A DNA stretch of 64,000 nucleotides from a virus (IMGVR_UViG_3300013426_000014:1-64000); one strand, 5' to 3'; shown: positions 12,572 to 60,508, numbered from the stretch's first letter. Made by a program: numbers and translations. Notes: generated by a model not told the origin, from the sequence alone.

Positions 12572-14164
12572 ATGAAAGACGTAACGCGTGACATATATTC
12601 AGACCCGTTCAAGTCGATCACCGAAGTGGCGGATCCGGGGCTGAACTCACTGACGGAATCGCTCGGCATCGACGACAGAAAAGAAACGGAAATCCTGAAC
12701 GAAGCGGGACAGTATTTCGGCGTCGTGCCGCATGACCTGATGCATATGAATCTCGACTTCGACAAGCTAAAGAAAATCGGTCTCGGTGGACTCGGCGCGC
12801 TGGCCGGCGCCGGAGTGTTGGCGGGCAAGGGGATGTCGAACCTGATAAAGCGGTTGCTCACCAAAGAGGGGGCGAAACGCGTATACAGACGGATCGAGGA
12901 GTTGAAGGCATATATATGCGACGGCGAGTACGCCGACAAGCTCCGTCTTACCATCACAATGCGCAATGGAAATCAAGTCAACACGATACGTTCATATGAT
13001 CAGATTGTCGACGCTTTCAAGAAAAACATACAGGACGATCTCGACCAGTACGCGGCGTCCGGCGTGACGAAACGCAAGATTAAAGAAAGTATCGACGAGG
13101 CAGATGAAGTGACGGTCCGCCGTGACGAATATAAGGGAAGCAACACACAGAGCAGACTCATCGATAGATCGACGATGATGTATCTTATCGGAAAGTACAG
13201 CAAGCTGATGCGTCTCGTCAACAAGGAGTTTCCGGATCTCCGCAACGGCGGTTACGGGTATTCCGGTGGCGGTTACGGGGAGGGTGACGACCTGTACGAC
13301 ATGATAAAGCGGACGTGCGAGAAAAACCTTTCACATTCCGACCGGTATATCGACAAGCTTATCGAGAAGTTCGAGAAGAAATTCACGATAAAGAAACTAT
13401 TCAACAAGGACAACCCCGGAAACGAGCGGGCGGTGGCGAAATGATCCGCCGCGCTGCATTCGGCGTGGGACGCGAAGAAGCAGGACATAATGGCAAGGTA
13501 TAACCAGATACCGCGCGACATATGCAGAAGCACTGAATTCCTTGCCATGTACAAGCTGCTCGTCAAGCTTTACCGGAACATGCCTGATTCGAGATACGAT
13601 GTCGACACTATAATGGCGGAGATAAAGAAAGCCGGGGCGGCAGCGCTGCAGTCGATGTTCAACGGGGACTGGTATACGGTAAACCCCGGAAACAACGCGG
13701 TGGTCATCGGGGTAGATAACACAATGGGTAACCAGACGCTTTACAACGCGTTCCTTAATGCGGTCGACGCGGGCGAGATAATAAACAAGTTCAACAAGTC
13801 ACACAAGACCGACTACAAATACGGTAATGAGAACGCGTATTATGTCGTCAGGATGGATTCAGGCAAGACGAAGCAGAAGCCGGCGCCGATGCATCTCGTC
13901 AGCCAGTCCAACCCGCATCTGTTCGCGAAAGAGCTCCCGCAATCGTTGATAAGCAACCCGGCGCAGGCAGACAAAGGATTCTTCAACGACAGGGTGAAGC
14001 TTTACTACACCGCGTCGATGGCGGGGCGGAACGGCGACAACCCGCAAGACATCAGGATAATGTTCGATCTGTCATGGGACGCGCCAATACAGAAGAAATA
14101 TGCGGATGTGTTCGGCAATCCGGGCGGGAACAACAACGGAAACAATGGCGGGCAAAACCCGTAA
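12572..14164 (+). CDS. Hypothetical late protein (530 aa, 1 TGA=Trp)
   Basis: Track ORFs 12572..13444 and 13490..14164 are in one frame, separated only by TGA 13442-13444 (AVAK*SAALHSAWD). ATAAATA at 12535-12541. Confidence 0.75.
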
Positions 14165-14185
14165 CGGATTACATATATAATTAAT

Positions 14186-15229
14186 ATGAACAACACACAA
14201 AAAGAGATACAGCTGTACAACCAGACGGCGAACATGTATAAGCTTGTCAGCGATGCGATATACAGTATTGAGAACGGTGACGACTGCCTGTACAGTCCGG
14301 ATCAGCTTGATCTTTACATCGGGCGGCTGCAGGCGAATCTGAAAAAACTATGCGGCACGATGTTCTTCGATAATCCGAACGTCGCGAGGTGGATCGATGA
14401 CGCCGCGGCGTTCAAGGACGCGGTCGGAAGGATTCGCGGTTATGACGCGCTCGAGGCGGCGGCGCCGTGGATAACAAAGACTTACAACGCGGCGGTGTCG
14501 AAAAGCTCGTCACCGAATCTCAAGTCGAGACGGCTGACACCGGACGACACGAGACGGTTTATCGGCAGGATAACGTCAGGCGACTCGATACGGCGGTATA
14601 AAAACAAAATCAACGCGCTGGCAATGCGTTCCATGACGGACGCTATGCTCGTGAAACTCGTGAACTCGGTCTTGTTCTCGTCTAACTCGACGCCATTGTC
14701 GGAATCGCTCACATACGGCAACGACAGATTGTCACTGCATGAGGGATTCTTTAACCCATACGACATGGATGACGATGATGACAGAAAGAAAATAAGGATC
14801 GAACCGGCGGTGAAGAAACCGGGAATAGTAAAGAACGTCCGCATGTGGAAGTCGAACAGACGGGACAAAACTGTATACAAGAACGGCAGAATGTACGCCG
14901 GCCGGCTGTATTCGGCGGACGACATTGTTGACGAGTGCCCTGTTTATGAGCTCAGCACATCGGATCTGTATTCCCCACGTATACGGGACATCGCGATACT
15001 CATAGATCCGGAGACGAGACGTTACGGCGTGCCGATGGGCATGGCGAACTATTACCGGACATCAGACGAGACCGGGACAAAGCCGAATATTGATTACGTA
15101 TACAATCCAGACGAAGGCATCATCCGGATATACGCGACGAGAAAAATCCGGATCGGCGACGAGCTTGTGATGAAATCGGACATGCCAGAATACGAGAACG
15201 GAATGAAAGATTATCAATTTAGATATTAA
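14186..15229 (+). CDS. Protein with C-terminal degenerate SET-like domain
   Basis: GRMYAGRLYSADDIVDECPV...MGMANYYRTS...PNIDY...IRIYATRKIRIGDELV follows the SET pattern, with NHS replaced by RTS. Confidence 0.6.
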   Translation: MNNTQKEIQLYNQTANMYKLVSDAIYSIENGDDCLYSPDQLDLYIGRLQANLKKLCGTMFFDNPNVARWIDDAAAFKDAVGRIRGYDALEAAAPWITKTYNAAVSKSSSPNLKSRRLTPDDTRRFIGRITSGDSIRRYKNKINALAMRSMTDAMLVKLVNSVLFSSNSTPLSESLTYGNDRLSLHEGFFNPYDMDDDDDRKKIRIEPAVKKPGIVKNVRMWKSNRRDKTVYKNGRMYAGRLYSADDIVDECPVYELSTSDLYSPRIRDIAILIDPETRRYGVPMGMANYYRTSDETGTKPNIDYVYNPDEGIIRIYATRKIRIGDELVMKSDMPEYENGMKDYQFRY

Positions 15230-16137
15230 TGAGAACGAACAGAAAAACCCATACTATGTTGAATCCACGTGGCAAGAGCCTTTACGAAGGTTTCGATTTG
15301 TCCGGCGGAAACGAGACGGACTGAACTGACACGATGTCAGATGCAGACATCAACGCACAGATTGATTACATGCGTGGAATGTCGCTGTCATTACAAACAC
15401 AGATGAATACGACCGCCGATTCATACGCGGTGCCACCGAAGTTCAATGATGACGTGGTGAAAAATCTCGAAAGAATATATGATAACAGCAACAACAGTCC
15501 CGCGAGCAATTCATATTCATATGTGTTTGATCGGGACAATCTTATGGTATACAAGGCGATGCCCGGCATAATAATGGATCCGCAGACATTTATAATGGGC
15601 ACGCCGGAAGCTGATTTCAGCGGGATGATGCGGGAATCGAAAACTTGAAAAAAATACTTCGGCAAGATGAATGTCACTCTGGAGGACAGAGTCAAGTTCA
15701 TATCGGATTGCGTGATGTCGCTGCCACCGCAGCTCGCCGTCGCGAAGGAACACATACAGAGCGTCATGCCGGATGTCGATATCGACTGTGACGCCGATGA
15801 CCAAAATGACTTTGAATTCTCTCTCGCCGCCGACATATTTGCGATAGCATGGCAGTGGAAGAAAATACGCGGTATACATCCATGGACAGGATACACCGAA
15901 GTGTTTGCCCCCGCGGCAGACAGATGGTTTGGATTTTTTATCACGGATGCTGATGCGTTCGAGCCGGATGGACATTCTTCGCTGAGCGACATCGGCGTGT
16001 TCGGATCGATGAATCTGACGAACATGTTTGACCGAATCCCGTCAGAATTCGGAATGGAAAAAGATAATGGCAGATATAAACTATTTTACTCATTAAGACG
16101 TATGTCCGATTACCTAATAGAAAATCACGGACTGTAA
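15229..16137 (+). CDS. Acidic-cassette family protein (302 aa, 2 TGA=Trp)
   Basis: ATG overlaps the upstream TAA. SLYEGFDLSGGNETD*TDTMSDAD cassette. TGAs at 15322-15324 and 15646-15648 join the track ORFs in one frame. Confidence 0.8.
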
Positions 16138-16970: not shown

Positions 16971-17459
16971 ATGAAAAATTACGCGACCGCTTATAAGAAT
17001 AGCAAAACCGCGGTGAACGAAGCACGGGCAATTGATATAGACAAGGAACACCGTGTCATTCTCGAAGCGGTGAAGAAGGAGTTCGGCATCAGTAACTTCA
17101 ACGAGCTGTCAGACGACGACAGGTCGATGTACAAGTCGCTCATACTTGAGTACTGGACCCCGACGGCCGGCATGACAGAAAACGGCCGGAAATTCCTCAA
17201 CGAGAGCAAGATCGTGTTGTCGCCTGAATCAACGGACGAAGTGATCAAGCGTTATTTCCAACGTGAGGTGAAGAATGACGCGACAAATTATATGTACGGC
17301 GTACTCAGCGGAAACACGAACGGGCAGAGCGCTGTGAATCTCAAGGCCGGGATTGAAGAGCAGATCGGTAGACGTCTTTCATCAAAGGTAGTCAAAGAAT
17401 GACTGTATGAGGTGTTGTACAAGCATTTGCAGTCAAAAGTGAAATCACTTAAGTTCTAA
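16971..17459 (+). CDS. Hypothetical late protein (162 aa, 1 TGA=Trp)
   Basis: Reading through TGA 17400-17402 gives VVKE*LYEVLYKHLQSKVKSLKF and a TAA 3 nt before the next ATG. ATAAATA at 16935-16941. Confidence 0.75.
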
Positions 17460-17462: not shown

Positions 17463-17972
17463 ATGGCCAAATTCAACAAGGATGAGTTTAAGGCCGGCAT
17501 CAAGGACGCGGTCGAAAGCGCTATCCTTAAAGGTTTGATAACCAAAGAGGATATAGAGAACAAAGATGAAGACCGGCTTAATGGGTTTATAATGTACCAG
17601 CTCACGCAGGCGCTGGAGGACCGCAAATGGTGTGTTGACGTCCTAAAGGATTTCAATTATGATGAGAAAGCAAGTTGGGACCGTCTACAGGAGAAATACG
17701 GCAAGTTCAGGTCACTCGCGGATGTCGCGCTGATAAACCTGTGGAAATTTCTCGAGAATGAAGGAGTGACATCATATGACTCATATGAAGGCGTGATGAA
17801 AAACGCTTTGTCAAAAGGTGACGACACACTACTCGGCAGGATAGCAGCCGACACAGAGTTAAAGACCGATGTTGACGATAAAAGGCAAAAAAGATATGGA
17901 CCTGATATCGACAATGATGATCATGACGCGTATACAGATGAGTCGTGAAACCGCCGGACAATAAGACGTTAA
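17463..17972 (+). CDS. Hypothetical protein (1 TGA=Trp near the C-terminus)
   Basis: Track ORF extended through TGA 17946-17948 to TAA 17970-17972, just before a terminator. Confidence 0.65.
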
Positions 17973-19073: not shown

Positions 19074-22040
19074 TTATGCGGTCCCTGCCGGTTTTTTTCA
19101 TTTCGGCATCTCCGGGTAGTGTTTTCACACAACATCGACAAGCCTACCTGCTATCTTCCTGTCACGGTTCTGCTTGCCCGGACGCTGGTCATTCCCGTCG
19201 ACGTCCTTGAACAGCGGCGCGATCCTGATGGCGATCTGCTTCCGTTTCGTGTCGTTTATATAGGACGATCCAGTCCTGTACAGAACCGGTCCGATTTCGC
19301 GGACGAGATCTGTCCTGACATTACCGTCCTTATCGAGCGCGTATCTCGACAACGTCTTATCCGCATGGATGTCTTTGTATATCGGGCCGGTCTTGTCACA
19401 TATCCACGGTATGACGTTCCTGTTGATGTAATCGTCATTATCCATGTTGCGTTTCTCTATATAACTGTGTTTCAGATTTTTGTTACCAAGCAACGAGTCG
19501 TCCGCGTACTCACCAGATAAGAAACGATACGGCTGCATCGTCTTGTTGAATACCTTACAGAATTCATCATTCGTGAAATTGCCGATATCAGGGCGTTTCG
19601 TGTCTATCGGATCAAGCGGAACGAACTTTCCATCTTTTTCCTCCGCGATCGTATTCATACCGATATTGTCGGCGCACAGGCGGATCCACGTGCCGAACGA
19701 CGCGTTCAGGAACTCAGCGATCTCCTCCTTCGACGCGGACCCCGGGCGGTCAGACGGCAGGAATTCAAGCCGGCTGAACAGACCCTTGATATAATACGGT
19801 TTCGTGCGCCGCTTGTTGTAATGCACGGCGATGTCCTGACCCTGCAGCGTGTTCGGGTTAAGCATGAACAGCGGCTCATTCTTCAGCACGGTCATGTTCC
19901 CTTTCCTCCGGTCCTCATCGCTCTTGAAATATCCGAAATCACCGAAGAACACGAGAACTTTGCGGTCGCCGACCGAATCCTCGTTGTACTTCTGTATCTC
20001 CTTCTGTATCGACCTTTTCTTCGACGCGATCTCCTTCCGTTTCGCCTCGTACTCATCCGTTCCTTTCGTCAGTCCGACGAGCTCTTTCTTCAGCGCGTCG
20101 ATCTCCGCCTGTATTTTCTTGGACTTCTTCGCGCGAATCACGTTCTCCCTCTCTATCATCTCATTTATGCCGCCTTTCGCGTTAAGCTGCTTATACGACA
20201 TTGCCTTGATGTTGGTGACATGACATTTTTTCGCGTTGGTCGTATTGGAGCCGAGACGGACGTCAAACAATCTCCGCGACATCACCGGCATGTATGTAGG
20301 CGTGAACGCCTCCGCCGCCGTCTTGAACCAAATGTGGTTGATCACTATATCATGGACCGTCTCGATCGTCGTGCCGGTCACTGATCCGTCAGATCCAGCC
20401 GCGGCGTCGACTATATCCGCGTTCGCGATCTTGCAGAATGTCTCGGCCAGTCCGGCGTCGCCACCCGCGTCCTCGACCGCGGCAGATATGATGTCCTTCA
20501 CCTTGTCGATATTCTCCGCCGTCGCCGTGCAGTCGAACATCAGGACCTCAACCGACCCGGCCGCCGCGTCCGTCGCGTTATGCAGATGATCGGATATGCC
20601 GTTGACTACGGCGCCCTCGACGCCCTTGTCAGACAGCGTGCTTGTCACCATTTTTGTGAACTCCTTCATCGACATCGATCCCGGCAGACGCCGTCCGTCA
20701 ATAACGAACATAAGGTTATCTCCCTTGTATGTTCCTGCCATCGCGTCCTGCATCGCGTTTGACGATTTGAACGGGGAGTCCGCTATATTATCCAGCCATT
20801 CTTTCGCGGAATCCAGTTTGTCCGCCGTGACAGTGAACTTATCCTTCAACCTGTCGAACACGTCCGCTATATATGACTTCGCATCTGACCCGTCATAATT
20901 GACGCCTGTCTTCGCGAGCAGGTTCTCAAACCCACTGGTTCCTTCCGGCGATCCGGAAAGGCCAGCGGAATCAATGCCGTCGATCTGTTCAAATCCTTTG
21001 TTCACCTCGACGATCCGCTCCTCCACTGTATAATGCGCGAAATCCTTGCCCGTGAATTTTTCTATCATCCGGTTGAACCAGTCCTCCGCCGTGTCGAACA
21101 CCTTGTCTAATCCGACCGCCGCGCAGAAGTCCTTGAAACCGGCAGTCAGCCATTCCCTCACCACACCGATCTGGAACACAGCCGGAATGCCGATGACAAG
21201 CAGCAGCTGGAAGCATGTCTGGAAATTGAAGAACTTATCCTCCTCCGCCTTGTTCACCCACCTGCTGAGCAAGACCTTCGCCGTGCCGCGACCGACCCAC
21301 AGTATCTTGCACGCCAGCGTCGTGACGGCGACGGCAGAAGCGGACGCGCCGAACCCGGCGACAAGCACGGGGATAACGACCGTCACGACGACGGAGCCGA
21401 GTATCGAGATCAACAGCGTCTTCCACATGCTGAGCCCGCCCGGATACCGGTAACCGAACACCGCCTGAAGCCCCTTGCTGTTACGTCACCGTTCCTTCCT
21501 GTCGAGATCACCTTCATCAAGCGCAGACTCATTAAGCGCACGCCACCCATTCAGCGACGCTACCGATTCAAACAGATCGACGTCAGCGAGCGACCTGTCA
21601 GAAAGCTTTGACTTCACGTAACCTTCCAGCAGGGCGTACGTGTCATCGCCGAATCCGAATCTGCTGAAAATCTCCGATATCTTGTCACCGAGTCTCGACA
21701 TGAGCTCAATGAACTTCTTGACGAGCTCACTGACTTTTGTGATCGCCTTGTCCTTCAGCGCCGTAAAGAATTTCTTCAGCGCCGTATATCTCGCGGCGGC
21801 GGACGATTTAACAGAGTTTCACTTATCCTTCAGCGAGAACTCGTTTAATATCTCAGATTCGAGCACCGCGAACATCGCGCTCACCGCCGCCTGTTCGTTC
21901 AGGTCGAGCATGATGTCATATGAGTCACGAGAGTATCCCTCTATGACAGGGCACAGCGCCATGCGGCGGCTGTACAAGTCAATCTTATGGAAAACCGAAT
22001 CAAGCGCGGACGCGTTGTTCAGCAGTATGGACTCGTTCAT
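19074..22040 (-). CDS. Large hypothetical late protein with hydrophobic segments (988 aa, 4 TGA=Trp)
   Basis: Three track ORFs in one frame joined at TGA 21819, 21486 and 19125, plus one more TGA before TAA 19074-19076. ATAAATA at 22063-22069. Confidence 0.75.
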
Positions 22041-24422: not shown

Positions 24423-26180
24423 CTAAATCAAACCACCATTCGTTTTAACGAAGTATGTGAGATACTGAGTCTCTGGATAGAAACCAGTCTCGATAAGCGC
24501 ATACCTGCTCTTAATCAAGATCTTAGGCGCCGCTGTGCCCTCTGATATCATCCTGACACTTTCAGCCATGATGTATGGGCAGAAGTTGAGACCCGGCTCA
24601 TCTTTGTCACCCTTACGGCCTACGAGAACACGCGTGTCATCGTATTTCATAAACGGATCTGTGTATATTGTCATTCCCGCCATGGTACCGACAGGGTAAA
24701 GGCTTCCGTTCGTCTGGTTGAACGTGTTCGCGATCGGACTGAACGAATACTGAGCGCCGAGCTGAAGGGCGGTAGCGAGCTTGTAGTTTGTGACCACGAA
24801 GTTCGCGGCGCCGCGACGGCCTCTGTTCATGATGACGTTGCCGGCAGCGAGAGCGCGGGCAGAGATTCTCTTAAGGATGGTATCCTGGTTCTCGAAGTTC
24901 GAGCTTCCGCCATACGTCTCGAAATCAGGGATGCTCATGCTCTCGTTCACAACCTTGCCATCCTCGAGATAAGCGTAAGGAAGGGTCTTCTGGTCCTTCT
25001 CCGGAGTGAGGTTGAGGTTGAGGTTGATGCCCTCAGAACGATTCGCCTGGATGTGGTTCTTCCAACCGAGCGCGAAGAGCCGTGAAAGGATCTCCTTGTT
25101 GATTGACTGAGAAAGCTCGTTGATCGCGGCGTTCTCGACCATCTTAAGAACATCAACACCCCACTGCTTCTGAAGGTCCTGAACCTGCTCCTGAGTTACA
25201 GCGACAGCAACTGAACGGGTCTTAACAGACACGAACTTCGTGAAGAGCTGCAGGCTCATCTGGCGGGCATACTGCTGCTCACCGGTCGCACGGTCCATGG
25301 CGTCATAGATCTTTGTGCCATCCATGAACGTGCCTGACCACGGGTCGTTGTCATTCTTGCCTGAACCAGTGAAGCCCTGAATCTGATCCTCGAGCGCGCT
25401 GATGAGACGCGGTGCTTTGAGCGTAACGCCCTCGGCGGTAACGGAACCGTTCGCGAAGATCTCGCCAAGCGACTTCTGTGTCGGGTTGGAAAGAACACGG
25501 AACATCGGATCAGCGGTAAGCCTTGAAAGACCGATGTACTGAACGTTTACGCCGTCAATCGTGATCTCGTCCGCCTTCGCGAGGTTCTCAATCGCCTCGT
25601 CCTTAAGTTCGGCAGTAGAAGCGTCAATCTTGCAGCGGAACGCGTGCGGAAGATCGAATGACTTATACGCGGTGTTCTTTCCCTTGTTCTCAGGATAAGC
25701 GGCGTTATACTGCGGGTTGGCGGTCTCTACATCGTAACCAGGGGTCGCGCCGTAAGGAGCCTTTGATCCGCTGTAGACGTAATCCATGAAAGGAAGAACG
25801 CCGGTAGGGCCGGAGAACGGAGTCGTGTTTACAAGGTCAAAGCCGACAGTGCGGGCAGCGACCTGAAGCGCCATCGGGAGGAAGTTGTTCCACTTATCGC
25901 CGGAGCCGAAGCTCTTCGCGCTTGTCTGATCCGCGCCAGTCGCGCCGGCGAACTGAGCCGGAACGGCGTTGCCGATACCATTTGTATTGTTGAGCGTCTG
26001 GAACGGGAAACTTACCCCGCCGACCGCCTCCTCGTTGAGGGCCATCGAGTGGTTGTGCGCGTACTGGCACATCCAGGCCATCTTCTCGCTGCCTTCATTG
26101 ACAGCGCCCTTCGTGATCTTCGAGATCATAGGGGACCAAGACTCTACGATCTTAGCCACGTTGACGTTATTTTTAGCCAT
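24423..26180 (-). CDS. Major capsid protein (T4 gp23-like)
   Basis: 585 aa. GFDLVNTTPFSGPTG, EQVQDLQ, INKEIL, RRGAANFVV, IYTDPF, FCPY, KSRYAL. 6 Trp codons, all TGG. Confidence 0.95.
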   Translation of the reverse strand: MAKNNVNVAKIVESWSPMISKITKGAVNEGSEKMAWMCQYAHNHSMALNEEAVGGVSFPFQTLNNTNGIGNAVPAQFAGATGADQTSAKSFGSGDKWNNFLPMALQVAARTVGFDLVNTTPFSGPTGVLPFMDYVYSGSKAPYGATPGYDVETANPQYNAAYPENKGKNTAYKSFDLPHAFRCKIDASTAELKDEAIENLAKADEITIDGVNVQYIGLSRLTADPMFRVLSNPTQKSLGEIFANGSVTAEGVTLKAPRLISALEDQIQGFTGSGKNDNDPWSGTFMDGTKIYDAMDRATGEQQYARQMSLQLFTKFVSVKTRSVAVAVTQEQVQDLQKQWGVDVLKMVENAAINELSQSINKEILSRLFALGWKNHIQANRSEGINLNLNLTPEKDQKTLPYAYLEDGKVVNESMSIPDFETYGGSSNFENQDTILKRISARALAAGNVIMNRGRRGAANFVVTNYKLATALQLGAQYSFSPIANTFNQTNGSLYPVGTMAGMTIYTDPFMKYDDTRVLVGRKGDKDEPGLNFCPYIMAESVRMISEGTAAPKILIKSRYALIETGFYPETQYLTYFVKTNGGLI

Positions 26181-28087: not shown

Positions 28088-29209
28088 TTATACGAGCGGG
28101 GTGAGCCGTTTTCACCGCCCGTCCGTCATCCGTTCGAGAATCTTCGGGTCCATCACATAATACGTCCCGCCGACGCAAACGACGAACGTAGTCCACGGCG
28201 TGTCGGTATGCAGGCTGTTGTTGTCGTTGACCGTAAACATGCCGCCGAGGTCGGACTTCTCCTCTCACCCGTCGATCAGGTGGTCCATCGCGGCGCGGAC
28301 GGAAGGCTTGTAAAACTGCCTGTATTTCCGGAGTGCTGACCATGTCATATACCGAATATAATTCGGGGCACCGTTCCAGTTCAAGTAATTGTTGTAATTC
28401 TGAATAAACACGCCATCATATATGTCAAGCTCATCCGACGAAGGATTAGACAGCATGCCGTAATTTACCATTATCCTGACCGTCGACGGCGCATCCGGAT
28501 CAACGTCGCGGAGTCTGATGTTCTGCATGATATCGTCGAAGAACACAGTGAACGGAACGGTGTCGCTGTATCGCTTATATTTGGCCGGACCCAGCCGGAA
28601 TATGAAATCGTCTATTCCCCTGATGGTAGGGAATCCATTCAGACTGTCAATTTTAAGTTTCTTGTCCGACGTTCACGATCCGATCTCCAGCTGCCGGACA
28701 GAATCAAGCTCACTGAAACACGGCGTCAGATCCGACCATTTGAAAATTCTCGTATCAACGCGGATGGAAAGTTCCCCGTCCTTGTAACCACTGCAGTCGA
28801 AGCAGTCGAGTTTCAGACCCGGATACATACCGGTCACAGATCCTTCCGGCATCGCGTACAAGCTGCCATTTACACCGAATTTAACAGACTTGAACAAGTT
28901 CATCGTCACCTGCCCCATGCCGATCTCGTCTGCAAAATCGCTGTCCGGTATGACAATGCTCATGTGATATCCGTCCGGCTCCGCCGTCACACGGACCGTA
29001 TCGTCGATGAAATTCCGCGTGGCTTCAGATGTGGCGTCTCAGTCTATCGCGAAAATGTTATATGCCGCCCATTTCTTTATATCGGCGATCCGCTCCATCA
29101 TTGCATTGACGTCCGCGTCGCTGAACGTTTCAGTGTAGTCTGTATCCGATATGTCTGACAGGTCAAAACCCTCGGACAATTTATATATGCGGACTTTATT
29201 GCGTGTCAT
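28088..29209 (-). CDS. Acidic-cassette / LRR-like family protein (373 aa, 4 TGA=Trp)
   Basis: KLSEGFDLSDISDTDYTETFSDAD cassette, IDSLNGFP repeat remnant, one frame from ATG 29209 to TAA 28088. Confidence 0.75.
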
Positions 29210-32264: not shown

Positions 32265-32348
32265 ATCGGTATAATACATATCTTTTGTATTTATTGTCAC
32301 TGAGCAAGAATACCGATAAATATGTCAGACAGAAATTTTTGTATAAGC

Positions 32349-42862: not shown

Positions 42863-46826
<3,964 letters not shown>

Positions 46827-47165: not shown

Positions 47166-47978
47166 TTATATTGATCTTCTTAGTTTCTTCGCCTTATCTG
47201 ATATATATTTTTTACGTAATGATTTCGACAGAAACAGTTTACCGTCAATTCCATTCTCAGGACGTTCGGACATGTTCCGACCAAGATCATACTTGTTAAG
47301 CGCCCTGTTGCCGGCGAGGTTGATCCTCTGAGCAGGATATTGCTGTCTACTCACATATCCGTAACTATTTGATGACACGGTGAAATTGTTGACCTTACTG
47401 AAGTCGACCGACGGCATGTACCTTTGCGCGTCTGACATGTAATTGTCAGCATTGTCGGATTTCAGGAATTTTCACGTCATGTCTGTCGCCGCCGTGATTT
47501 TGTCCGGGCCGGAAAAATTATTAAATGAAAGCGATATGGCGGGCCAACCACATACCGGCTTCATCACCGGCATATCGATCACAGGCAGATTATCCAGACT
47601 CGTTATAAGATTGTAATTCGCGTTGAACAACCCACCCCGTATGACCTTCGGAAAATTCTTCATCGATGTCAGTCCATTTCATGACACATCGACATTGACA
47701 TCGACGACATTCAACGGGAACGGGAGCTCTGTCTGACCCGGCCGGAGGATGATCCGAATCGCAGGCCGGGTCAGTACATCATCCACATCATCCGAATATA
47801 GCAATGATATCCCGTCTTTATCGATTGACACCAATTTCTCATCTATTCCCTGCTCTTTGCATCACATGATCATCATCTGCTCTGTCGCGGCATCATCCGC
47901 GTCTGACATGGTGTCGGTCCAATCGACATCGTCCATATCAGACAGATTGAAATCTTCGTATAACAAATTGATCTGCAT
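47166..47978 (-). CDS. Acidic-cassette / LRR-like family protein (270 aa, 3 TGA=Trp)
   Basis: LLYEDFNLSDMDDVDWTDTMSDAD cassette, LTSMKNFP and ITSLDNLP repeats. ATAAATA at 48000-48006. Confidence 0.78.
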
Positions 47979-50584: not shown

Positions 50585-52540
50585 TTATTTATCTTCCGCG
50601 ACGGCGCCGAGTTTCTCGATGTACGGGCGGATCCTCGCGTAATACTCATTGTATCCCGGATCCTTCGGATCGCACGCACGGTCACGCTGTTCCGGCGTAG
50701 CCGGAAGATAGCGTTCAGGAATCGTCGTACCCTTCTTATATACAGGAGTCCTGACTGACATCAGACTGGTCGGCGCGAACATCCCGGTCTGGTTGCGGAT
50801 CAGCTTCACACAGCTGGTCCATGCCAGGGCGCGCATGGACTGATTCGTAATCTGCATCATCCACTTGACATAATTCTCGAACTGCTCCGGCGTCGGATTA
50901 GTCTTGTGGTTACCCGGACGAGCTGCCACTATCGCGTCGACGACGCGGGACACATTCGACGGGTTATCGGCGTTGAACGATATAGGAACCTTGTCGCCTT
51001 TCGTCCAGACATCCTCACAATATTTCTTCGGGAAAATCGCGAACAGGTTAAGGTAGTCATTGAAACGGCGGCCGACATTGCCGACGACCTTCTGACCGTT
51101 CCATCCCTTCGCATCAGGCGAGGACGGGACGACATCTGTCCCCATCACGCCGAAGAACTTCTGCATTTTCTGACCATTGATAAATTCAGCGTCCTTGCCG
51201 TTATTCGAACCCTTGATATATTTGCGGCTATGTTTCAATGTCTTAAACTCGTCACTAAGCTTCGCCCATGATGCCGGAGATTGACCTGCCGTCATCGCGC
51301 CGGCATCCGCGCCAAGATATCATGCGTCCTTGTTGTCCTGAAGAAATCCGATGATATCCTTATCGATGCCGGACCTTGTCGCCCAGTCAATTCATGAGTT
51401 GAAGTCCGGGATGAAATTATACTGCGTCCACCTGCGGCCGAACGCATTCTCCCATGAAATCTCAGCGTCACGCATATCCTCCTGCCTGTTTCCGGCGGCG
51501 ATTATATACCATTTACTGCCGAGACGGGCGTTACCGAGATTGCCCTCGTTAACAAGGTTCATGATAACGTTGAGCACACCGCGGTTCGCGCGGGAAAGCT
51601 CGTCGAAGAACAGCACGCCGCCTCCCTCCGACCCGTGCGAACAGTTCGCGAGCCGGTCGAGCTCCGCGTCCGTCTCTGGATCACCGGTCGGCTCGTACAT
51701 CGGAAGCCAGTTCTTCACAAGCTCGACGACCTTTGTGTGGTTCGCGTCCGGAACGGAAAGTGAGAAGTCATCATAATCCATCTTAGACAAACATGTATCG
51801 ATACAAGTCAACTTGTGGTTGATATCCGGATCCTCAGAAAGTTCCTTGAGTATACTGTGAATGATAGCGGTCTTGCCGATACCAGGCGCTCCCCATATCA
51901 TCATAGGATTCGCGTCGCCTTCGATCAGGTTCCTCCTGATATTCGAATAGAGCAAATCCTCGAAATCCTCGGTGTTGATATTTTCAAGACCGAGCTCCGG
52001 ATTGGCGTCGAGCTTGATGAACGCGTCATCCGGGACGATGCGCGCCTGTGCGATATCATACGCCTCGTTCATCTTCGCCGCACGGCGGGACGCTTTCCTT
52101 GCGTAATGCTCCGACACACCGTCGCCCACGGATATCTTGTCGATAAAATCGCGCCAGTACGCATTGACCTCACGAATGTCGTCACTTATCCTCGCGTCGA
52201 GATCCGCGATACCGATGCTCCTGTCGATGTCGACACCCTGATCGGCGGCGAGCTCGACAATATGCTCAGACGGGATAACCGTCACACCCATCGGAAGGGT
52301 CTCGTTCTGGAAGTTGACCGCGACAGTGAGCGGTGTCACGACCGTCCTGCCAGCGAAGACGGAGACGATCGTATTACCGATCTTCTTGAACATGTTCATA
52401 ATACGGCGCGCGCCGCGGCGAACAGCATCGCCGAACCGACCTTCATTCAAAAACTGGTCGATATCATCCCTGCCGTATTTCCGTACAAGATGCTCGAGAA
52501 GCGCACGATCCTTTCCGATCTCTGTTCTTCTATCCATCAT
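50585..52540 (-). CDS. MoxR-like AAA+ ATPase with N-terminal extension (651 aa, 2 TGA=Trp)
   Basis: WGAPGIGKT, LFFDELSRA, IIAAGNR, then PDFNS*IDWATRSGIDKDIIGFL...SPASW in one frame. Confidence 0.9.
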
Positions 52541-52817: not shown

Positions 52818-54680
52818 TTATTCAGCCGGCGGCGTCATCTCCGCGCTGCCTTCGCCTTCCATGCCGGATCCCGACATACCCATCTCGCCGCCCATTCCAG
52901 GACCCATATCCATGCCGCCGGACATTCCGCCCATTCCAGGACCCATATCCATGCCGCCGGACATTCCGCCCATTCCAGGACCCATATCCATGCCGCCGGA
53001 CATTCCGCCCATTCCAGGACCCATATCCATGCCGCCGGACATTCCGCCCATCCCTGCGTTCATTTCTTCCTGCTTCTTCTTCATCTCCGCTTCATCCTCG
53101 GCGCGATATTTCTCGTTCAGTTTCCAGTCGTCATCGGACAGGCCGAGATATTTGACCAGGAATCGCATCGAGAACACCGGACGTCCGTCAGCGCCGTTTA
53201 TACCAGACAAATTCTGTACGAGAGCCGCGCCATCCGATATGATCGCACGTTCCTTCGCGAGCACGAAAAGATTTTCCTCCACATATGAAAGACCAAGTGC
53301 GGAGCGGAGAACATTATTTGTCGCGAATGCGGGGTACTTAAGGCAGAACTGCATCCACATCGGCTTGACGAGCAATTCCTTAAACACCGTCCTGAGCCGG
53401 TTGATAAACAGGCTGAACTTGTACTCCTCCCTTGACACGGTGTTATTCGACGTCGGGACCGGGTTAGACGAGTCTCCGTCGACGCCCATCATCGTGAACC
53501 TGTCTTTCGGCAGCTGTGTCTCGATTATGAACCGCTGCCAGAAATATCGGAGCTGCTCTGTCGAGTTAAGGTCATATCCCTCGACACCGACTTCTGATAT
53601 CTCTGTCTGTGACCCCTCTCTGGACGGGAAGAAGAACGTCTTGTTGAACGAGAACTTCGGTTGGCCGTTGACCGTCACCTCTCCGGAGTTGTCGTCTATT
53701 ATGATATCCTCCTTGTAATACGCCTGCAGCTCATTGAGCCGGGTCCTCGCCATCTGTTCGGACTGCGACCCGATCGGGACAACGAACTTGATGCGTTTCT
53801 GCGCATTCTGCACGTTTCAAATGACACGGGAATTCTCGAGAGTCCTGAGCATGTTGAACGAACGCACGAGCTGCTCCGTGTAAGACAGGCGTGATATGAA
53901 ATTATTCCGCGCCCATGATATGTAAATCACGTTGGAGTCCGGCAGAATCCGCTCCTTCTCGGCGTCGCCGCGATACTGGATCCACACCTTGTACTCATTC
54001 CCGTCTTCATCGAACCTTATATCCGGCTCAAGTGTTACCGGGTCAAGCTCCTGAAAGCCGATTATGTCGACGGCCTTGCCTGTCGCCCGGTCCGTCTGGT
54101 ATATGATCTCGAACGCGAGAAACCCGTCGACCAGGAATCGCTTCATATACTGTCACGCATCGTCCGACTCGTTGAACTTGAACTTCGAGTACACACGCTT
54201 ATACGACTCGTTGATGGCATCGACGATCTCCTTGCCGTTCTCCTTCTTCAATATAGCGGTCAGATTCTTCGTGTTCGGATACGCGAAATAGTGGAAGTCG
54301 TCATACACGACCGTCTCATTCGTTATTGTATCGAGCACATACTCAATCTCGCCTTGAAGCGCGAAACGTCTCAGAAAATCCCGGCGAGCCGCGTAAGACT
54401 TATCGAAAAACGCGACGTACTCGTTGTTCCCGGCGATATTCGCGTATGTATTATACACATTTTGATTTTCCGTAAAGCCGGAGTTCGGATATATCGAGTT
54501 GGATGACTCCGCCGTCTCGGACGACCCGATGCCCCTCGCGAACCTGATGAGTGACTCGTCCCATTTAAGTCCGATGTTGCTGAGATTGAGAAGGTTCCGC
54601 TCGATCCGCCTGTGACCTCCGAAATTCGGCATCCCACCCGGCGCGCCGGCGAGCGCCTTTAATATGAATTTTTTGGCCAT
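52818..54680 (-). CDS. Portal protein (T4 gp20-like, 620 aa, 2 TGA=Trp)
   Basis: GEIEYVLDTITNETVVYD, DDA*QYMKRFLVDG, ELDP, FNMLRTLENSRVI*NV, FFFPSREG..TEI, VSREEYKFSLFINRLR. ATAAATA at 54707-54713. Confidence 0.92.
52888..53051 (-). repeat. Four perfect 39-nt tandem repeats encoding MSGGMDMGPGMGG in the portal C-terminal tail
   Basis: ccgcccattccaggacccatatccatgccgccggacatt x4 plus a partial unit. Confidence 0.95.
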
Positions 54681-54705: not shown

Positions 54706-55353
54706 CTATTTATCAGCCCGCAATACCGCCTGCTGCACAGCGGAAAGCGCGGCGCCGCGGATAGATTTGCCATAACTCAAGAACGGTATATATTTTCACA
54801 TGTCATACTCGACAAGCCTGATTTCCGTACAGTTCCGCACATAATACTGACGGCATGCGGAGGTTATATCAGCAGACAACCTGTAATTGACAGATTTCAT
54901 AAACATCCCGCGACGAACCGGATCGGCGAGCGTCTGATACAGGACATTATTCATGGTGAAACCGTCATTCTCGACATTATCATAAAAATCCGGATTCGTG
55001 TCATTGATGATGTCAAGCACCGCGGCCCTGAACTCGGGCAAAAGAAGATTGAAGTTGAGTCCTTCAATATGAGCCGGATCCGACCAGCCCGTCACCATGA
55101 CAAGCGGGACGACATCAGTAAACCTGACATCCGATATGACCTGCTCATCCGGCCTGACGTACATAAACGTGTATATCATACCGGGAATGAACACCGCCGG
55201 CTGTGACGACTCCATATCAAGATCAAACTCAGTCTCGAGCTTGTCTTGCCCGCGGCGTTTCCTTGACAGCGCGTAATCGACAAGATACGTGTACGCGGCG
55301 GATCTTTTCTCAGAATCCGCCGCGTACTTCCTGTAATATTCGGTATACGTCAT
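54706..55353 (-). CDS. DNA end-protector-like protein (T4 gp2-like, 1 TGA=Trp)
   Basis: PGMIYTFMY...DVVPLV...GLNFNLL...RQY...EYDM*KYIPFL, next to portal and gp4. Confidence 0.65.
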
Positions 55354-57383
55354 TATTTGAAGACAATACGTTTAATCGGTTTTATCTGCCGTGGACGCGT
55401 CACGCCAGAAGTGAAGTCAAGTTTTGACGGGGTGTGATCCGGTTTGTCGGAACCATCACAGACCGTGTCACGCTGCGCGAGCACCGGCTGGATGTTGCCG
55501 TCCGTGAACCTGAATGTCGACGGGCGTTTTTTCGGTAGCTTTTCCGGAACCGGAGTCGGATTCATTGAATCTACCGGATCAGCCGCGAACTTCAGCACGG
55601 TCCGGACGACGACCGGCGGCTTCACTGCCTCCACGACCACAGGATCTGCAGGTGTTTCTGTCAGGTTAGTCTCGACCGGACGGGACGGCGCGATGACGAA
55701 ACGGTCAACACCGAATTTCACCGCCTCGTTGTATAGACGGATTTCCTCTGCCGGGTTAACGGAAGTGAAACTTATGACAGCCGGCGGATCCGGGACGGCG
55801 TCATCCGGAACACCCGGCGTCTTCTCGACATCATCCGAATACGGAAAGCCGATCATGCTGACGTAACGGTCGTTGCCGCCATTCTTGACATTCTGCTTGT
55901 ATAGTGCGGAGTCATTATGCTGCGCCTCCAGTATAGGATCGCCGAGTCTTTTTTCATTCGGAACGTACACCGTCTTTATGCCCTTGTTGAACTCACGTTT
56001 CTTCAGCCATATATCATCAGCGTTGACATACTCCATAATAGACGACAGATCATCCGGGCAGATGTTCAGCGCGTCCGGCGGATATAGTATGCCGCCGCAT
56101 CCAGTCGCGATGAGCTGTGACGACGCGGCCTTCGCCTTCGTATAGTCATAGCCTCAGTTCTTATACGGCAGCGGCTTGCGGTCCGCTGAATACCTGATGA
56201 GATGCACGCGTCTGGCACACACCCGTGACGGATTCTTCATATACGCGTCGGTCAGGCTTTCGATGAGATCAGGTGTGTATACAGAATCGTCGTCCACCGT
56301 GATGACCGCGTGACCGCGGTATTTCATCATCGCGTAATAATATTTCTTGTGCGGCTTGAGATCGCCACACGGCTCATCCGACCAGATCAGATCCACACGC
56401 GGATCTGACAGATAATCAGAAAGCTCTGACGTCAGCCTGTCCCTGTCGCGGACGTCAAGGCAGACGACGATTCTACACGGCTGAACAGTCTGCCTGTACA
56501 GCGAGTTAATAACGGCAGGCAGGTATTGGATCCTGTCGCCGTATGATGTCAGCGACACGACGACGCGGGACCGCCGTTCATCGAGCTTCTTCGCGTATTC
56601 CGGAAAATATGAGAACAGCGTGTCATTTATCTTACCGTAATCATTCACCTTATGAAGCGCGGTAGGCATCGACTGTGTGCCCGGTATATAGCTCGCCGAA
56701 TTATCGAATATTTTTGACGACTGACGTATCGTCCTGTCCGCCATTATGTTAAAACAGAACTGCCATGACTCGTCTGACGTCGGGGACAGCCGCATGTAAA
56801 GATCCTCGTCGAAAAACCGCGGATCGGTAAATGTCCCGGCCGGATAGAGCACGCCGCCGGTGCCGTTCGCCGGCCGGGCGGTGTTGAACACGATGTCAGG
56901 AACGTCGTTAAAACTTCCGGCGGCTTTCTGCTTCCTGTTATCAAACCGGATAAGCCGATTCCCCGCGCCGAAGAAATATCCGAATGCTCCGCATATGATG
57001 TCATCCGGATATCTGTCGTGGTCGTCAATGAACATCTGCAGCCAGCCCGGCTGTCTGATGACGTCGTCGTCCGTTATCAGTATCGGGTTGGTCGGGTATT
57101 TCTTCAGCGCCGGCATCAGCTTCTTGTGCGAACGGGTGTTCGTCTCCGTCCAAACAAGTTCGATCTCTTTCTTTCTCACCATCGCGACGAGATCCGGTGG
57201 GAGATCTGCCTTCCCTCCCGGAAACTCCGGACGCGCGAGCGCAAGCATACACTTGTAGAGTCTCCTGTCGACATTCTGGTTCAGAATAGACCGGAACGCC
57301 GGGGCGACACACTCGATACGCGCCGGATACGACGTCATCGAAACTATGACCTTCTTCTTGAACTGTCCGTTGTTTGTTGCCAT
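55353..57383 (-). CDS. Tandem GT-A/GT2-like glycosyltransferase with Pro-rich tail (676 aa, 1 TGA=Trp)
   Basis: Two copies of VSxTSY..RI / SHKK or PHKK / ITxDDD / GxGGxLYP / DE or DD. TGA 56154-56156 lies inside domain 2. Confidence 0.85.
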
Positions 57384-57391: not shown

Positions 57392-58000
57392 TTACATTAT
57401 TCCCAATTTCGTAAGCGTGTCCTCCGTCCACACGACGAACTTCATACCATGCGAGTCTGCCCACGCCTTTGCCGCTTTCCATTTCGCTTCGTTCGTCAGG
57501 TATGTGCGGCAGTCGAGCACGAACCGTTTCTGCTCCTTGAGCTTCGCCGTCGACTGAGGCGGGATCGGCCGAATCGTCTGTGCTTTCGGCTTCACCTCGA
57601 CGAGAAGCTTATGTGAGGCACAGTCAGAATCCTCGTCCCCGTCGTCATCCGACTGATTAAACTCTATGTAGAAATCGATGAAATAGCTTCGCACCGGCCA
57701 GATCGACGGATCCGCCGGGTTGAGCTGAAGCCGGCGTAACTCGTCAAAATCGAGATTGCCCGGATCACGGTATTCGATCTTCGCAACCTCTATGCCTCAC
57801 TTGCGTACATTCGGGTTGTCGTCACACCACCTGCACAAATCACGCTCCCATCCGGATCTATATATGAGCTCAGCCGGACTGCCGATGATTTTCTCCGGAT
57901 GTTGTGGCACATAATATCCCTGATGCGTGCCCTTCACCTCTCCCGATTCGGTAAGGTGTACGACCGGCTTGTGCGATCTTTTATGTGATTCAACGTCCAT
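57392..58000 (-). CDS. Head completion nuclease (T4 gp4 / TnsA-N-like, 1 TGA=Trp)
   Basis: QGYYVPQHPEK, IYRSGWE, WCDDNPNVRK*GIE, YFIDFY, LVEVKP, NEAKWKAA, FVVWTE. Confidence 0.92.
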
Positions 58001-58088: not shown

Positions 58089-58748
58089 ATGAATAGAAAT
58101 GATTTCATGGTAATCATCGACTGCGGTCACGGCGAATCGACACCGGGCAAACGATCGCCGTGATCAGCGAACAAAGTTGAGCCGGCCCTGCCGTTCTTTG
58201 AATGAGAATGAAGCAGGAAAGCCGGCAAGCTGGTGGCGGACAAACTGCAAGCGGCGGGGGTGAACACTGCATTCACTGTGAATCCGTCAGACCCGTCCGA
58301 TCTGAAACTCACGTTGAGATACAAATTAGCAAACAGGATCAAACAGGCGAACCCAAACAAGAAATGTATATTCCTGTCAATCCATGTCAATGCCGCCGGG
58401 AACGGCGCCAAATGGATGACCGGAACAGGATGATCCGCATACACGACAAAGGGTCAGAACAGATCCGATGTATACGCGGACAAACTGTATGACGCGGCGG
58501 AGGAAATATTGAAGCCGGCGGGAGTGCGGATCAGAACAGACAAATCGGACGGAGACAGAGACATCGAGGCAAACTTCACTGTGATATATGGGGCGGCAAT
58601 GCCGGCCGTGCTTGTCGAGAACATGTTTCAGGACAACGCATCAGACGTTGAATTCCTGACGAGCACAGACGGCATCGAAATGCTGACCGACGTGATGGTA
58701 AAGGGATCGATTGACTTCCTTGAATCGGAATACGGCGGAAAACGGTAA
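58089..58748 (+). CDS. Endolysin, N-acetylmuramoyl-L-alanine amidase (Amidase_3, 219 aa, 4 TGA=Trp)
   Basis: IIDCGHG..TPGKRSP*...FE*E*SR...LSIHVNA...GTG*SAYT...MPAVLVENMFQDN. TGAs at 58161, 58203, 58209 and 58431. Confidence 0.93.
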
Positions 58749-58762: not shown

Positions 58763-58792
58763 AAAAAGGACGTCAAATCGACGTCCTTTTTT
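58763..58792. terminator. Bidirectional intrinsic terminator
   Basis: AAAAAGGACGTC-aaatc-GACGTCCTTTTT. Confidence 0.85.
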
Positions 58793-59258
58793 ATTTTCCG
58801 TATGACTGTATCAGTTCTTCGACCTTGACCCGGCTGTTGATTCCATAAATGATATCATCAATAGATTTCAGCGTCTCTTGCATATACTTCGCGAGCGCGT
58901 TCAGCATCTCGATCCCGTATGTGTAATCCGACAAATCCGATGATATCTGAGCATTAATCGCTGAATCGGTGCCATACCGTATTTGAGACTGCGTCTTATA
59001 CCAATTATACCGCTCGGCGTAATCGCGCTTGTACTTCTTGGAATGTTCTGAAATCTTGTTGACAAGTGTGTAATAATACTCAAGACATTCCTGCCGAACG
59101 GGATATACGGTCGTCTGCAGCTCGACAAGATCAGGAAGTTTCTTTAACAATCCCGACATGTAATCCACCTTCGCCTTCCATTTCTCATAATGTGACGTCA
59201 CATATTCCTCGAGTGATGCTGACCGTTCCTCCGTTATCTGCTGACCGGCGTTTTCCAT
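58791..59258 (-). CDS. UvsY-like recombination mediator
   Basis: 155 aa helical protein translationally coupled to the RecA/UvsX gene. C-terminal YMQETLKSIDDIIYGI pattern. Confidence 0.55.
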   Translation of the reverse strand: MENAGQQITEERSASLEEYVTSHYEKWKAKVDYMSGLLKKLPDLVELQTTVYPVRQECLEYYYTLVNKISEHSKKYKRDYAERYNWYKTQSQIRYGTDSAINAQISSDLSDYTYGIEMLNALAKYMQETLKSIDDIIYGINSRVKVEELIQSYGK

Positions 59259-60508
59259 TATTCGTTATTGCCGTTTATGTCGCCGCCGTCATCAGTGAAG
59301 AACTCATCGAGATCGTCATGCGACTGGCCGGAAGGAAGCTGAAACGTCGGCTTGATTATTTCGTCGTCCAACTTGTGGAGCAGCTCGTCGGTGAACACCT
59401 TGTCTGTGAACAATTCAGTGATCGGAAGCGTCTGCCCCAGACGGGCGACGACAATTTTTCGGTTCTTATACTGCGCCGCGACCTTCGGTCTGGCGTACAT
59501 TGTCTGTCCATTATAATCAAATGTCTTCACTACCGATTTCTCCACATCAGAAAGCTTCTCGTAATCCTTCTCTGTCAGCAGCTCCCCCTCCATCACGCCG
59601 GAATTCTCCCACGTGAGATACTGTTCGAGCCCGACATACGGATTCGGCGCCTTGAAGAACGGTATCTGAAACTTTACCTTGACCGGACGGGTGAATCTCG
59701 ACTTGAACGGTGACGCGGTGACAAGCACACCGGTCCTTGTGTAGTCAGTCTTTCCCTTATTCTGCTCTACTATCTTCTCGCCGATCTTGTCGTCACGGAG
59801 CTGCGCCTTTGTCAGGATCATCGTTATCGACGGGTTGTACTTAAGCCCCTGTCCGCCGGAAACCTCGACACCGCCCATGAAATCAATCTTCGCGTAAACA
59901 TGATTGACGATAAGAAACGGAATCGCGAGCTTTGACATTTTTAACCCATTGACACGGAACAAAGCCTTGAGCTGCTGCTGTTTCGTCATATCCCGGACTT
60001 GATTACCCTCGGTCGAGTCGTTTTTCTCCTTGTCGGACGTCAAGTTGCCGACTGAATCAAGGATGACAAACACCTTGTCCTTTGATTTCGCCGCCGCCAT
60101 CTTGTCACACAGATTGGCAAGAAACGTGTTAACCTCTGATATGACGTTGACCGGAACGGCGATAAGTTTTGACGTGTCGACACCAATCCTGCCGGCAAAT
60201 TCCTTGTCCCACGCGCCTTCTGAATCAAGCACGATGACGGTATATCCTTTTTTCTGCGCCTCCCGCGCCATCGACGCGGCGAGATAAGACTTACCCGCGC
60301 CGGACTCGCCGGCGAGCATCATGGATCTCCTGTTGGGCAAACCACCAAACAATGATCCAGATACAGCGGCGTTGAGTATATACGATCCCGTACCGATATA
60401 ATCGTCACTGTTCGCTCACACAGCGGTCTCTATGATATCCGCGTCCGAATTAAGCGACTTGACAAGATCAAAAATCGATCCTCCCGCCACCTCTGTTTTC
60501 TTCGCCAT
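59258..60508 (-). CDS. uvsX: RecA/UvsX-like recombinase (416 aa, 1 TGA=Trp)
   Basis: IGTGSYILNAAVSG..FGGLP, AGESGAGKS, LDSE, ILDSVGNL, VNHVY, SGG. ATG 60508 is reached through TGA 60416-60418. Confidence 0.9.

Follow-up and report, generated by a model that had tools for sequence, protein, structure and literature searches.

The DNA considered here is the 64,000-nucleotide stretch IMGVR_UViG_3300013426_000014:1-64000 (the window), which corresponds to bases 1-64000 of a single virus record of 269,322 bp with a G+C content of 50.3%. An earlier note on the window, made from its sequence, had proposed that between positions 12572 and 60508 (49.1% G+C) a T4-like phage reads TGA as tryptophan (Trp), that is, uses genetic code table 4. 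The analysis described below indicates that TGA is very probably used as an ordinary Trp codon in this phage. The window includes structural genes (tail sheath, major head protein, prohead protease, portal and a gp4-like nuclease), genes for replication and repair (a RuvC-like resolvase, SSB, a helicase, an NAD-dependent DNA ligase and a RecA/UvsX-like recombinase), and genes for a MoxR-like ATPase, a glycosyltransferase and an endolysin. The candidate decoder, a split gene for a tRNA with the anticodon UCA, lies outside the window.

The portal protein is of the T4 type (Pfam Portal_T4, 2.5e-52), in agreement with the description of the phage as T4-like, and its best named matches are those of the Prevotella Lak megaphages (42-44% identity). 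Closer relatives were found among other contigs. These include a 364-kb IMG/VR contig with 35% G+C and a portal identity of 63% (G001), a 318-kb ENA contig with a portal identity of 83% and 32% G+C in its 21.8-kb portal-region locus, a JGI contig with a portal identity of 79% and 25% G+C, and a 2.5-kb ENA contig with a DNA identity of 89.5% that represents an independent assembly from another sample (L174).

The following genes of the window have in-frame TGA codons when table 4 is used; coordinates are window positions.

12572-14164, 15256-16137, 16971-17459 and 17463-17972, plus strand: four genes with 1, 2, 1 and 1 TGA; the TGA at 17400 is opposite Trp in G001, and 17463-17972 has a weak match to the DnaG helicase-binding domain (24.9 bits, below the Pfam cut-off of 25.9)
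19074-22040, minus strand: 988-amino acid protein with four TGAs (21819, 21486, 19125, 19098), a single table 4 frame with a positive coding score and no family match
26277-28049, minus strand: prohead protease (PHROG head maturation protease, 6e-37); its sole TGA is the last codon (26280-26282) and is followed by TAA, so that the product is nearly identical under either code
28088-29209, 29225-31192 and 31185-32300, minus strand: genes of unknown family with 4, 4 and 2 TGAs; in 29225-31192 paralog alignments run through the TGAs at 30203 and 29789
32349-32981, plus strand: RuvC-like resolvase with a TGA at codon 197 (32937-32939); the match to PHROG 159 (1.8e-13, residues 72-208) crosses it
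32981-37093, plus strand: 1370-amino acid protein with five TGAs (33407, 34688, 36437, 36509, 36911) and a C-terminal Pfam Amidase_3 match (residues 1136-1361) that crosses three of them
47166-47978, minus strand: 270-amino acid protein of unknown family with three TGAs (47862, 47679, 47472) and a homolog in a TGA-recoded relative (L171)
50585-52540, minus strand: MoxR-like AAA ATPase (Pfam AAA_5), 651 amino acids, with TGAs at 51392 and 51320, both Trp in G001
52818-54680, minus strand: T4-type portal protein, 620 amino acids, with TGAs at codons 176 (54153-54155) and 288 (53817-53819); the Portal_T4 match (residues 103-528) covers both
54706-55353, minus strand: gp2-like protein, 215 amino acids, with a TGA at 54796-54798 that is Trp in G001
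55353-57383, minus strand: family 2 glycosyltransferase (Pfam Glycos_transf_2) with a TGA at 56154-56156 that is Trp in G001
57392-58000, minus strand: TnsA-like nuclease or gp4-like head completion protein (Pfam Tn7_TnsA-like_N, 2.5e-12) with a TGA at 57797-57799
58089-58748, plus strand: endolysin of the Amidase_3 type (PHROG endolysin, 1.9e-28), 219 amino acids, with TGAs at 58161, 58203, 58209 and 58431 against a single TGG (P for at least 4 of 5 = 0.012); the TGA at 58431 is opposite Trp in G001, and two of the endolysin TGAs are opposite TGA in a paralogous amidase domain
59258-60508, minus strand: RecA/UvsX-like recombinase (Pfam RecA), 416 amino acids, with a TGA at codon 31 (60416-60418); the alignment to G001 (residues 10-408) crosses this codon, the column of which is Thr in G001

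Genes were called using a purpose-built dynamic-programming caller, whose codon model was trained on genes of medium G+C content and is weak in a 60% G+C segment of the genome. Under table 11 the range 12572-60508 gives 61 genes, 31 of which end at TGA, with a coding density of 0.878 and a mean length of 229 amino acids, while table 4 gives 41 genes, all ending at TAA or TAG, with a density of 0.953 and a mean length of 371 amino acids. Readthrough of TAG (0.865) or TAA (0.874) produced no gain. For the whole genome the change from table 11 to table 4 reduces the number of genes from 362 to 248 and raises the density from 0.82 to 0.886. The hand count of the earlier note (about 45 in-frame TGAs in about 22 genes) became 44 in 21 of the 41 genes when repeated by program, and the codons on which its five quoted peptide motifs rest (57797-57799, 58431-58433, 51392-51394, 32937-32939 and 54796-54798) are all in-frame TGAs. 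Its other readings of this range also stood: the re-called genes end at TAA or TAG, with the stop of the RuvC-like gene and the start of the 1370-amino acid protein overlapping as TAATG at 32979-32983; the G+C content is close to 50%; and TGG is the majority Trp codon (163 TGG to 44 TGA). No gene of the range needs TGA as a stop; a mixed model preferred a TGA end in four cases only, three of which involve extensions that are short or doubtful; at the fourth (29789), the homology to a paralog continues beyond the TGA.

Genome-wide, approximately 256 in-frame TGAs are distributed over 92 of about 248 genes and make up 23% of the Trp codons (256 TGA and 854 TGG). This share is similar to that of other codons ending in A (CAA/CAG, 19%; TTA/TTG, 22%), and it drops from about 50% to 16% as the G+C content at the third codon position rises from gene to gene. 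The base that follows TGA did not differ clearly from the base that follows TGG (chi-square P = 0.07), so that the data give no sign of selection for a leaky stop context.

The identity of the amino acid was addressed by four independent tests, all of which point to Trp. All readthrough proteins, with an X at each TGA, were compared by tblastn to G001, and 98 TGA sites could be aligned to a residue. The columns contained Trp 35 times, Tyr 18 times, Phe 10 times, and Gly and Cys twice each, a profile similar to that of Trp codons written TGG, which were opposite Trp at 186 of 352 sites. When substitution frequencies taken from the same alignments were used to compute log-likelihoods, Trp was the best of all residues, favored over Tyr by 74 units and over Cys by about 160, and the 17 sites of the window considered separately favored Trp over Tyr by 18. 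The enrichment of Trp that the earlier note had predicted for homolog alignments was also found in the portal protein, where all 119 homologs in a 120-sequence alignment have Trp in the columns of codons 176 and 288. The two closer relatives on the 318-kb ENA contig and the JGI contig likewise need TGA to be Trp in order to have an open portal frame.

The third test consisted of the exchange of TGA and TGG between relatives in both directions. In L174 the TGAs at portal codons 176 and 288 and at codon 186 of the gp2-like gene are TGG, and the TGG at portal codon 381 is TGA. When L171 was compared, TGA of the phage corresponded seven times to TGA and three times to TGG, and TGA of L171 corresponded 15 times to TGG of the phage. 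The two codons thus appear to be interchangeable in this lineage. Within the genome itself, the gene at 210060-211181 has four TGAs, all of which are opposite Trp encoded by TGG in a 50%-identical paralog. Since L174 is an independent assembly with reciprocal TGA/TGG states, assembly errors and pseudogenes are ruled out as the origin of these codons, which agrees with the argument of the earlier note that essential single-copy genes such as those for the portal and the endolysin are affected; matches that span TGAs were found in the conserved single-copy genes for the portal, MoxR-like ATPase, endolysin, RecA and RuvC-like proteins.

A phage that reads UGA as Trp may be expected to have a tRNA with the anticodon UCA, as the earlier note had suggested. 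ARAGORN with default settings and the Rfam tRNA model found 32-33 tRNAs in the genome, none with this anticodon, and ARAGORN with lowered thresholds returned only noise. When introns were allowed, ARAGORN identified a single extra gene, tRNA(UCA), at genome 206860-207225. The gene is located within the array of 33 tRNA genes clustered at genome 202-222 kb, on the same strand, with 11 nt between it and the preceding tRNA. It folds into a clean cloverleaf in which a 293-nt insert separates U34 from C35, and consequently only the spliced RNA contains the anticodon loop. The spliced molecule would be Trp-like by sequence: it has G1-U72, G73 and C35-A36, its nearest match among the tRNAs of the phage is tRNA-Trp(CCA), and it has its T arm and anticodon-arm pattern in common with a tRNA-Trp of G001.

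The insert was not recognized by Rfam. Blastn of the split gene against 50,697 phage records gave no match, and a single weak local match was all that nhmmer and blastn returned against G001; this match led to a family of introns. The 3' part of the insert resembles inserts in the tRNA-Leu(UAA) and tRNA-Lys(UUU) genes of G001, and a 28-nt core pattern (P8'-J8/7-P7') was found at more than 119 IMG/VR loci, 90 of them inside intron-containing tRNAs. Leu(UAA) and Arg(UCU) make up most of these, and the others include five UCA, three UUA and one CUA. Seventeen short tRNA introns, of which three exceed the Rfam group I threshold, were used to build a covariance model; the shorter members of the family exceed the RF00028 gathering score at 58-68 bits. 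The family model matches genome 206971-207185 over its full length (86.4 bits, E = 7e-21), and the match stops exactly at the predicted 3' splice G. It also recovers the introns in the tRNA-Lys(UUU) and tRNA-Leu(UAA) genes of G001 (L011:2225-2778 and L021:17439-17947; 97 and 117 bits), loci at which Rfam found no group I intron at E values of up to 0.1.

An alignment of 32 members showed that 95% of the pair cells are standard pairs, compared to about 35% in slid controls. Compensatory changes occur at 34 of 47 pairs, including those of the P3 helix and the P7 pseudoknot, and the bulged A is invariant. The 5' exon ends in CUU, the 3' exon starts with CAA, the guide UUGGAG pairs with CUU|CAA, and the last base of the intron is G. 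Among the Leu, Arg and UCA introns, the guide base beside GAG changes in step with the base that opens the 3' exon. The guide pairing, this covariation and the terminal G together place the junction, and it is on this basis that the anticodon is read as UCA rather than GCA. By these features the insert belongs to the classic group I introns of tRNA anticodon loops, and it carries an additional 78-nt hairpin located before the guide. As in the cyanobacterial tRNA-Leu(UAA) introns (RF00028), the insertion site follows U34, the U at the end of the 5' exon pairs with a guide G, the intron ends in G, and there is a P3-P9 core with a bulged A in P7; the insert shares P8'-J8/7-P7' with the members that pass Rfam. 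It differs from them in that it is found in an opal suppressor instead of a tRNA-Leu, has the 78-nt hairpin and scores below the Rfam threshold. In addition, a P7 pair is flipped (GAGU/ACUC) in five of the five aligned introns of UCA tRNAs with respect to the anticodon-loop type.

The split arrangement recurs in at least 15 other IMG/VR contigs. In 11 of them the model match ends in ...GTAAG and is directly followed by CAAAAC, and a motif scan added four more distinct contigs (those behind L071, L078, L105 and L145). For four such contigs, of 28-30% G+C, table 4 lowered the number of genes and raised the coding density by 0.10-0.22. No such gain was seen for G001, the closest large relative, which is not TGA-recoded and also has a tRNA(CUA).

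Two other features of intron-bearing suppressor genes were observed. The ARAGORN results placed introns with the same 28-nt core in putative ochre (UUA; L062, L073 and L084) and amber (CUA; L072) suppressor tRNAs of other IMG/VR phages. The tRNA(UCA) genes of L071:6520-6830, L145 and L078, which belong to other TGA-recoded phages, have an extra arm after the anticodon arm, with the loop CUCCAAA or CUCCAAC, which copies the anticodon loop of tRNA-Trp(CCA) and might act as a decoy for the tryptophanyl-tRNA synthetase (TrpRS); the tRNA of the phage studied here does not have this arm.

Use of TGA is uneven along the genome. Three blocks are almost devoid of it: 1-11 kb (no TGA and 27 TGG, P = 8e-4), 170-200 kb (2 TGA and 99 TGG, P = 1.5e-9) and 232-250 kb (3 TGA and 88 TGG, P = 1.6e-7). 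The genes of these blocks end at TAA or TAG and consequently read alike under tables 4 and 11. The description of the reassignment as genome-wide in the earlier note thus stands for the decoding and does not stand for the distribution of the codon, in view of these three blocks and of a few genes outside the window that possibly end at TGA. Inside the plus-strand block without TGA at 170-200 kb, two minus-strand genes (184945-185949 and 187345-189048) carry 4 and 2 TGAs, with 0 and 4 TGGs, and use of the codon appears to track the transcription unit rather than the position. Within the window, the genes without TGA include those for ligase, helicase, SSB, an HD protein and an exonuclease, and the genes with TGA include those for the portal, gp4-like, gp2-like and MoxR-like proteins, together with the endolysin, in which four of five Trp codons are TGA. 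The preference for late genes known from other recoded phages therefore appears to be present here, in an imperfect form.

The host is likely a member of the Bacteroidota with the standard code, because the Bacteroidota promoter motif TAnnTTTG is enriched approximately six-fold in upstream intergenic DNA, because Shine-Dalgarno sequences precede starts at a background frequency (9% versus 7.6%, that is, no signal), and because relatives infect Prevotella. Neither RF1 nor TrpRS, which the earlier note had named as genes that the rest of the genome might encode, was found, and the same was true of RF2; searches of the genome for the three families were empty, while control genomes gave matches.

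Taken together, these observations suggest the following course of events, all of whose steps, from splicing and Trp charging to expression timing, are inferred from sequence. The blocks without TGA (1-11, 170-200 and 232-250 kb) would be translated by the unmodified host system before the suppressor accumulates. The tRNA array would be transcribed next, and the group I intron would splice itself out of tRNA(UCA). The spliced tRNA could then be charged with Trp by the host TrpRS and compete with host RF2 at UGA, so that genes carrying TGA, such as those for the portal, endolysin and head completion proteins, would become translatable and depend on the suppressor. The recoding itself may have arisen in an AT-rich ancestor, as suggested by the 25-32% G+C of recoded relatives, and may have been kept as the lineage moved to 50% G+C. 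A further idea, which we consider doubtful, is that the intron is a timer of the code switch rather than a passenger, the kinetics of splicing setting the moment at which UGA comes to mean Trp, with the lineage-specific 78-nt hairpin possibly tuning the process. If this were the case, morphogenesis and lysis genes that carry TGA would be translatable only after splicing, the 'missing' opal suppressors of table-4 phages would be explained, and the device, recurring in a wide range of unrelated phages with recoded TGA and perhaps in suppressors of the ochre and amber type as well, would amount to a general switch at the RNA level.

Several points weigh against the main interpretation, that is, against TGA as an ordinary Trp codon decoded by the spliced tRNA. 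The phage has no RF1, RF2 or TrpRS gene that would account for RF2 being out-competed. The late-gene pattern has exceptions, since the major head protein and the tail sheath have no TGA and the RecA and RuvC-like genes have one each. Apparent TGA ends with an ATGA overlap exist outside the window, at genome 251373-251990, 253439-253963 and 224559-225023. The Rfam group I model (RF00028) found nothing in the 293-nt insert even at E = 10, and the insert has, in its 5' part, an unusual extra hairpin of 78 nt that separates the splice site from the guide. Finally, CheckV estimates that the record is about 87% complete.

Other explanations differ greatly in how well they account for the data. That the in-frame TGAs do not encode Trp, being instead glycine codons as in table 25, selenocysteine or cysteine codons, lesions of pseudogenes or assembly errors, has a negligible probability. 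Table 25 phages of Absconditabacteria do exist (10.1101/2021.08.26.457843), but Gly and Cys occupied 2 of the 98 columns each, their likelihoods were more than 150 units below that of Trp, TGA/TGG states were identical or reciprocal in independent assemblies from other samples, and essential single-copy genes carry the codon; these readings were rejected on the likelihood test, the L174 exchanges and the portal columns. UGA could also be read by an ordinary tRNA-Trp(CCA), through a change in the tRNA body of the Hirsh type or near-cognate pairing, in which case the split tRNA(UCA) would be an inactivated relic. In E. coli, tRNA-Trp that carries A9C or G24A can read UGA, and the tRNA-Trp(CCA) of the phage (genome 202836-202907) has a C at position 9. 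On the other hand, 256 sense TGAs, some of them at invariant Trp columns of essential proteins, demand efficient decoding, the cloverleaf of the split gene is still perfect and its intron core complete, and conservation of the arrangement in at least 15 other phage contigs argues for a function. We therefore regard decoding by tRNA-Trp(CCA) as very unlikely, and this candidate was put aside once tRNA(UCA) had been found. Just as improbable is a mycoplasma-like host that itself uses table 4, with which the phage would share its code without needing a decoder of its own. The absence of release factor and TrpRS genes from the phage would fit such a host, and the table-4 phages in culture are for the most part phages of Mycoplasma or Spiroplasma (PMC11210395). 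However, the phage has its own tRNA(UCA), approximately 58 kb almost without TGA would serve no purpose if the host read this codon as Trp, and TAnnTTTG together with the lack of a Shine-Dalgarno signal indicates Bacteroidota. No member of the Bacteroidota is known to use table 4. Relatives of the phage infect Prevotella, which has the standard code (PMC6784885).

The alternative that deserves most attention, possible although it seems to us rather unlikely, is that TGA has two meanings, being Trp in most genes and still a stop in a few, probably early, ones; the phage would then have a mixed code instead of a complete reassignment. Tandem paralogs with the motif RGRRR...VPEWC (genome 250816-253963, L167:1816-4963; about 174-205 amino acids each) have one TAA end and two TGA ends, and the ATG of the next gene overlaps both of these TGA stops (ATGA or an 8-nt overlap), which makes them the strongest candidates for a TGA that is still a stop. 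Readthrough of both would add 24-98 codons with strongly negative coding scores and more TGAs, and the gene at 224559-225023 behaves in the same manner. Block-wise mixed codes have been published for crAss-like phages (Mgcod preprint). Nevertheless, the candidates amount to only about 3-6 of approximately 250 genes, with none in the window, and the codon model trained on genes of medium G+C content is unreliable in the 60% G+C segment. The true C-termini of the candidates are not fixed by any family match, Pfam having returned none for the TGA-terminated paralogs, and adjacent paralog families at 209-212 and 255-260 kb plainly have TGA as Trp. We thus favor TGA as an ordinary Trp codon that is decoded by the spliced tRNA(UCA).

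Recoding of TGA in phages is already known, and what is new in this genome is its 50% G+C and its decoder split by an intron. The reassignment to Trp, the suppressor tRNAs, the bias towards late and lysis genes and the low-G+C route have been described by Borges et al. (10.1101/2021.08.26.457843) and Yutin et al. (PMC7886860). Table-4 gut phages such as Jade, Sapphire, Agate and the crAss-like beta and zeta groups have the same meaning of TGA, a host thought to use the standard code, phage-encoded suppressor tRNAs, parts of the genome free of the recoded codon, and a strongly recoded endolysin. Low G+C has been proposed as their route to recoding, while this phage has 50% G+C, a Lak-type portal and a decoder split by a group I intron; moreover, two Jade genomes carry RF1/TrpRS, none of which was found here. 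The Lak megaphages are alike in having large tRNA arrays, intron-bearing tRNA genes and an alternative code, but they have 540-550 kb, 26% G+C, a recoded TAG and RF2, compared to at least 269 kb, 50% G+C, TGA and no release factor gene in this phage. These differences, and a portal that is only 42-44% identical, make it a relative of the Lak phages and not a member of their clade. Mycoplasma and Spiroplasma and their phages also read TGA as Trp by means of tRNA-Trp(UCA), but there the host has no RF2 and the whole cell uses the code, while in the present phage the blocks without TGA and a tRNA of its own suggest a code unlike that of the host.

One more phage with TGA as Trp adds little by itself. 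Since the TGA-recoded phages sampled besides this one have 25-32% G+C and this genome has 50.3%, recoding seems able to persist after a lineage leaves the AT-rich state thought to create it, with TGA then behaving like other synonymous codons that end in A. The intron-split suppressor is of interest for another reason. Most table-4 phages have no detectable opal suppressor (10.1101/2021.08.26.457843; PMC7886860; Cook et al., PMC11210395), and a Sup-TCA tRNA is detectable in only 15-35% of them (10.1101/2021.08.26.457843; PMC11210395). A split gene of this kind escapes default tRNA finders and may account for the low rate of detection, and an intron-aware rescan could close much of the gap and lead to better annotation of recoded phages; a further possibility is that splicing controls when the genetic code changes in an infected cell. 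'Enigmatic' tRNA introns were reported in Lak phages (Devoto et al., PMC6784885) and a 2026 survey described tRNA introns in recoded jumbo phages (PMC13037316). Our literature search found no paper that classed these as group I introns or placed them inside the anticodon of an opal suppressor, which is not proof that none exists.

The window also has genes without internal TGA, as listed below.

1-11165: TGA-free flank with a 60-67% G+C open reading frame (ORF; 43-4410), the tail sheath gene (5484-7952) and neighbouring genes; 0 TGA and 27 TGG
24423-26180, minus strand: major head protein (PHROG 138), 585 amino acids; 0 TGA and 6 TGG
42863-44647 and 44649-46808, minus strand: helicase and NAD-dependent DNA ligase (Pfam, PHROG); 0 internal TGA and 12 TGG

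A TGA within seven codons of a TAA or TAG stop, as in the prohead protease gene, occurs in about 10 genes of the genome versus about 6 expected, and is not clearly a designed double stop. The ORF at 43-4410 codes for 1455 amino acids, has only TGG as Trp codon and gave no match in a Pfam search. It is part of a segment of 60-69% G+C within this 50% G+C phage, at window 1-4410 and genome 250-269 kb; either recent acquisition or a different constraint on a surface protein could account for it. When the ends of the contig are joined in silico, the ORF that is open at its 5' side keeps one open frame; this is weak evidence in 67% G+C DNA, and a circular genome is not claimed. In one other phage contig, L136:5520-5719 is a strong partial match to the OLE RNA (RF01071, 109 bits, model positions 284-595) and lies beside a tRNA array and a tmRNA-like gene.

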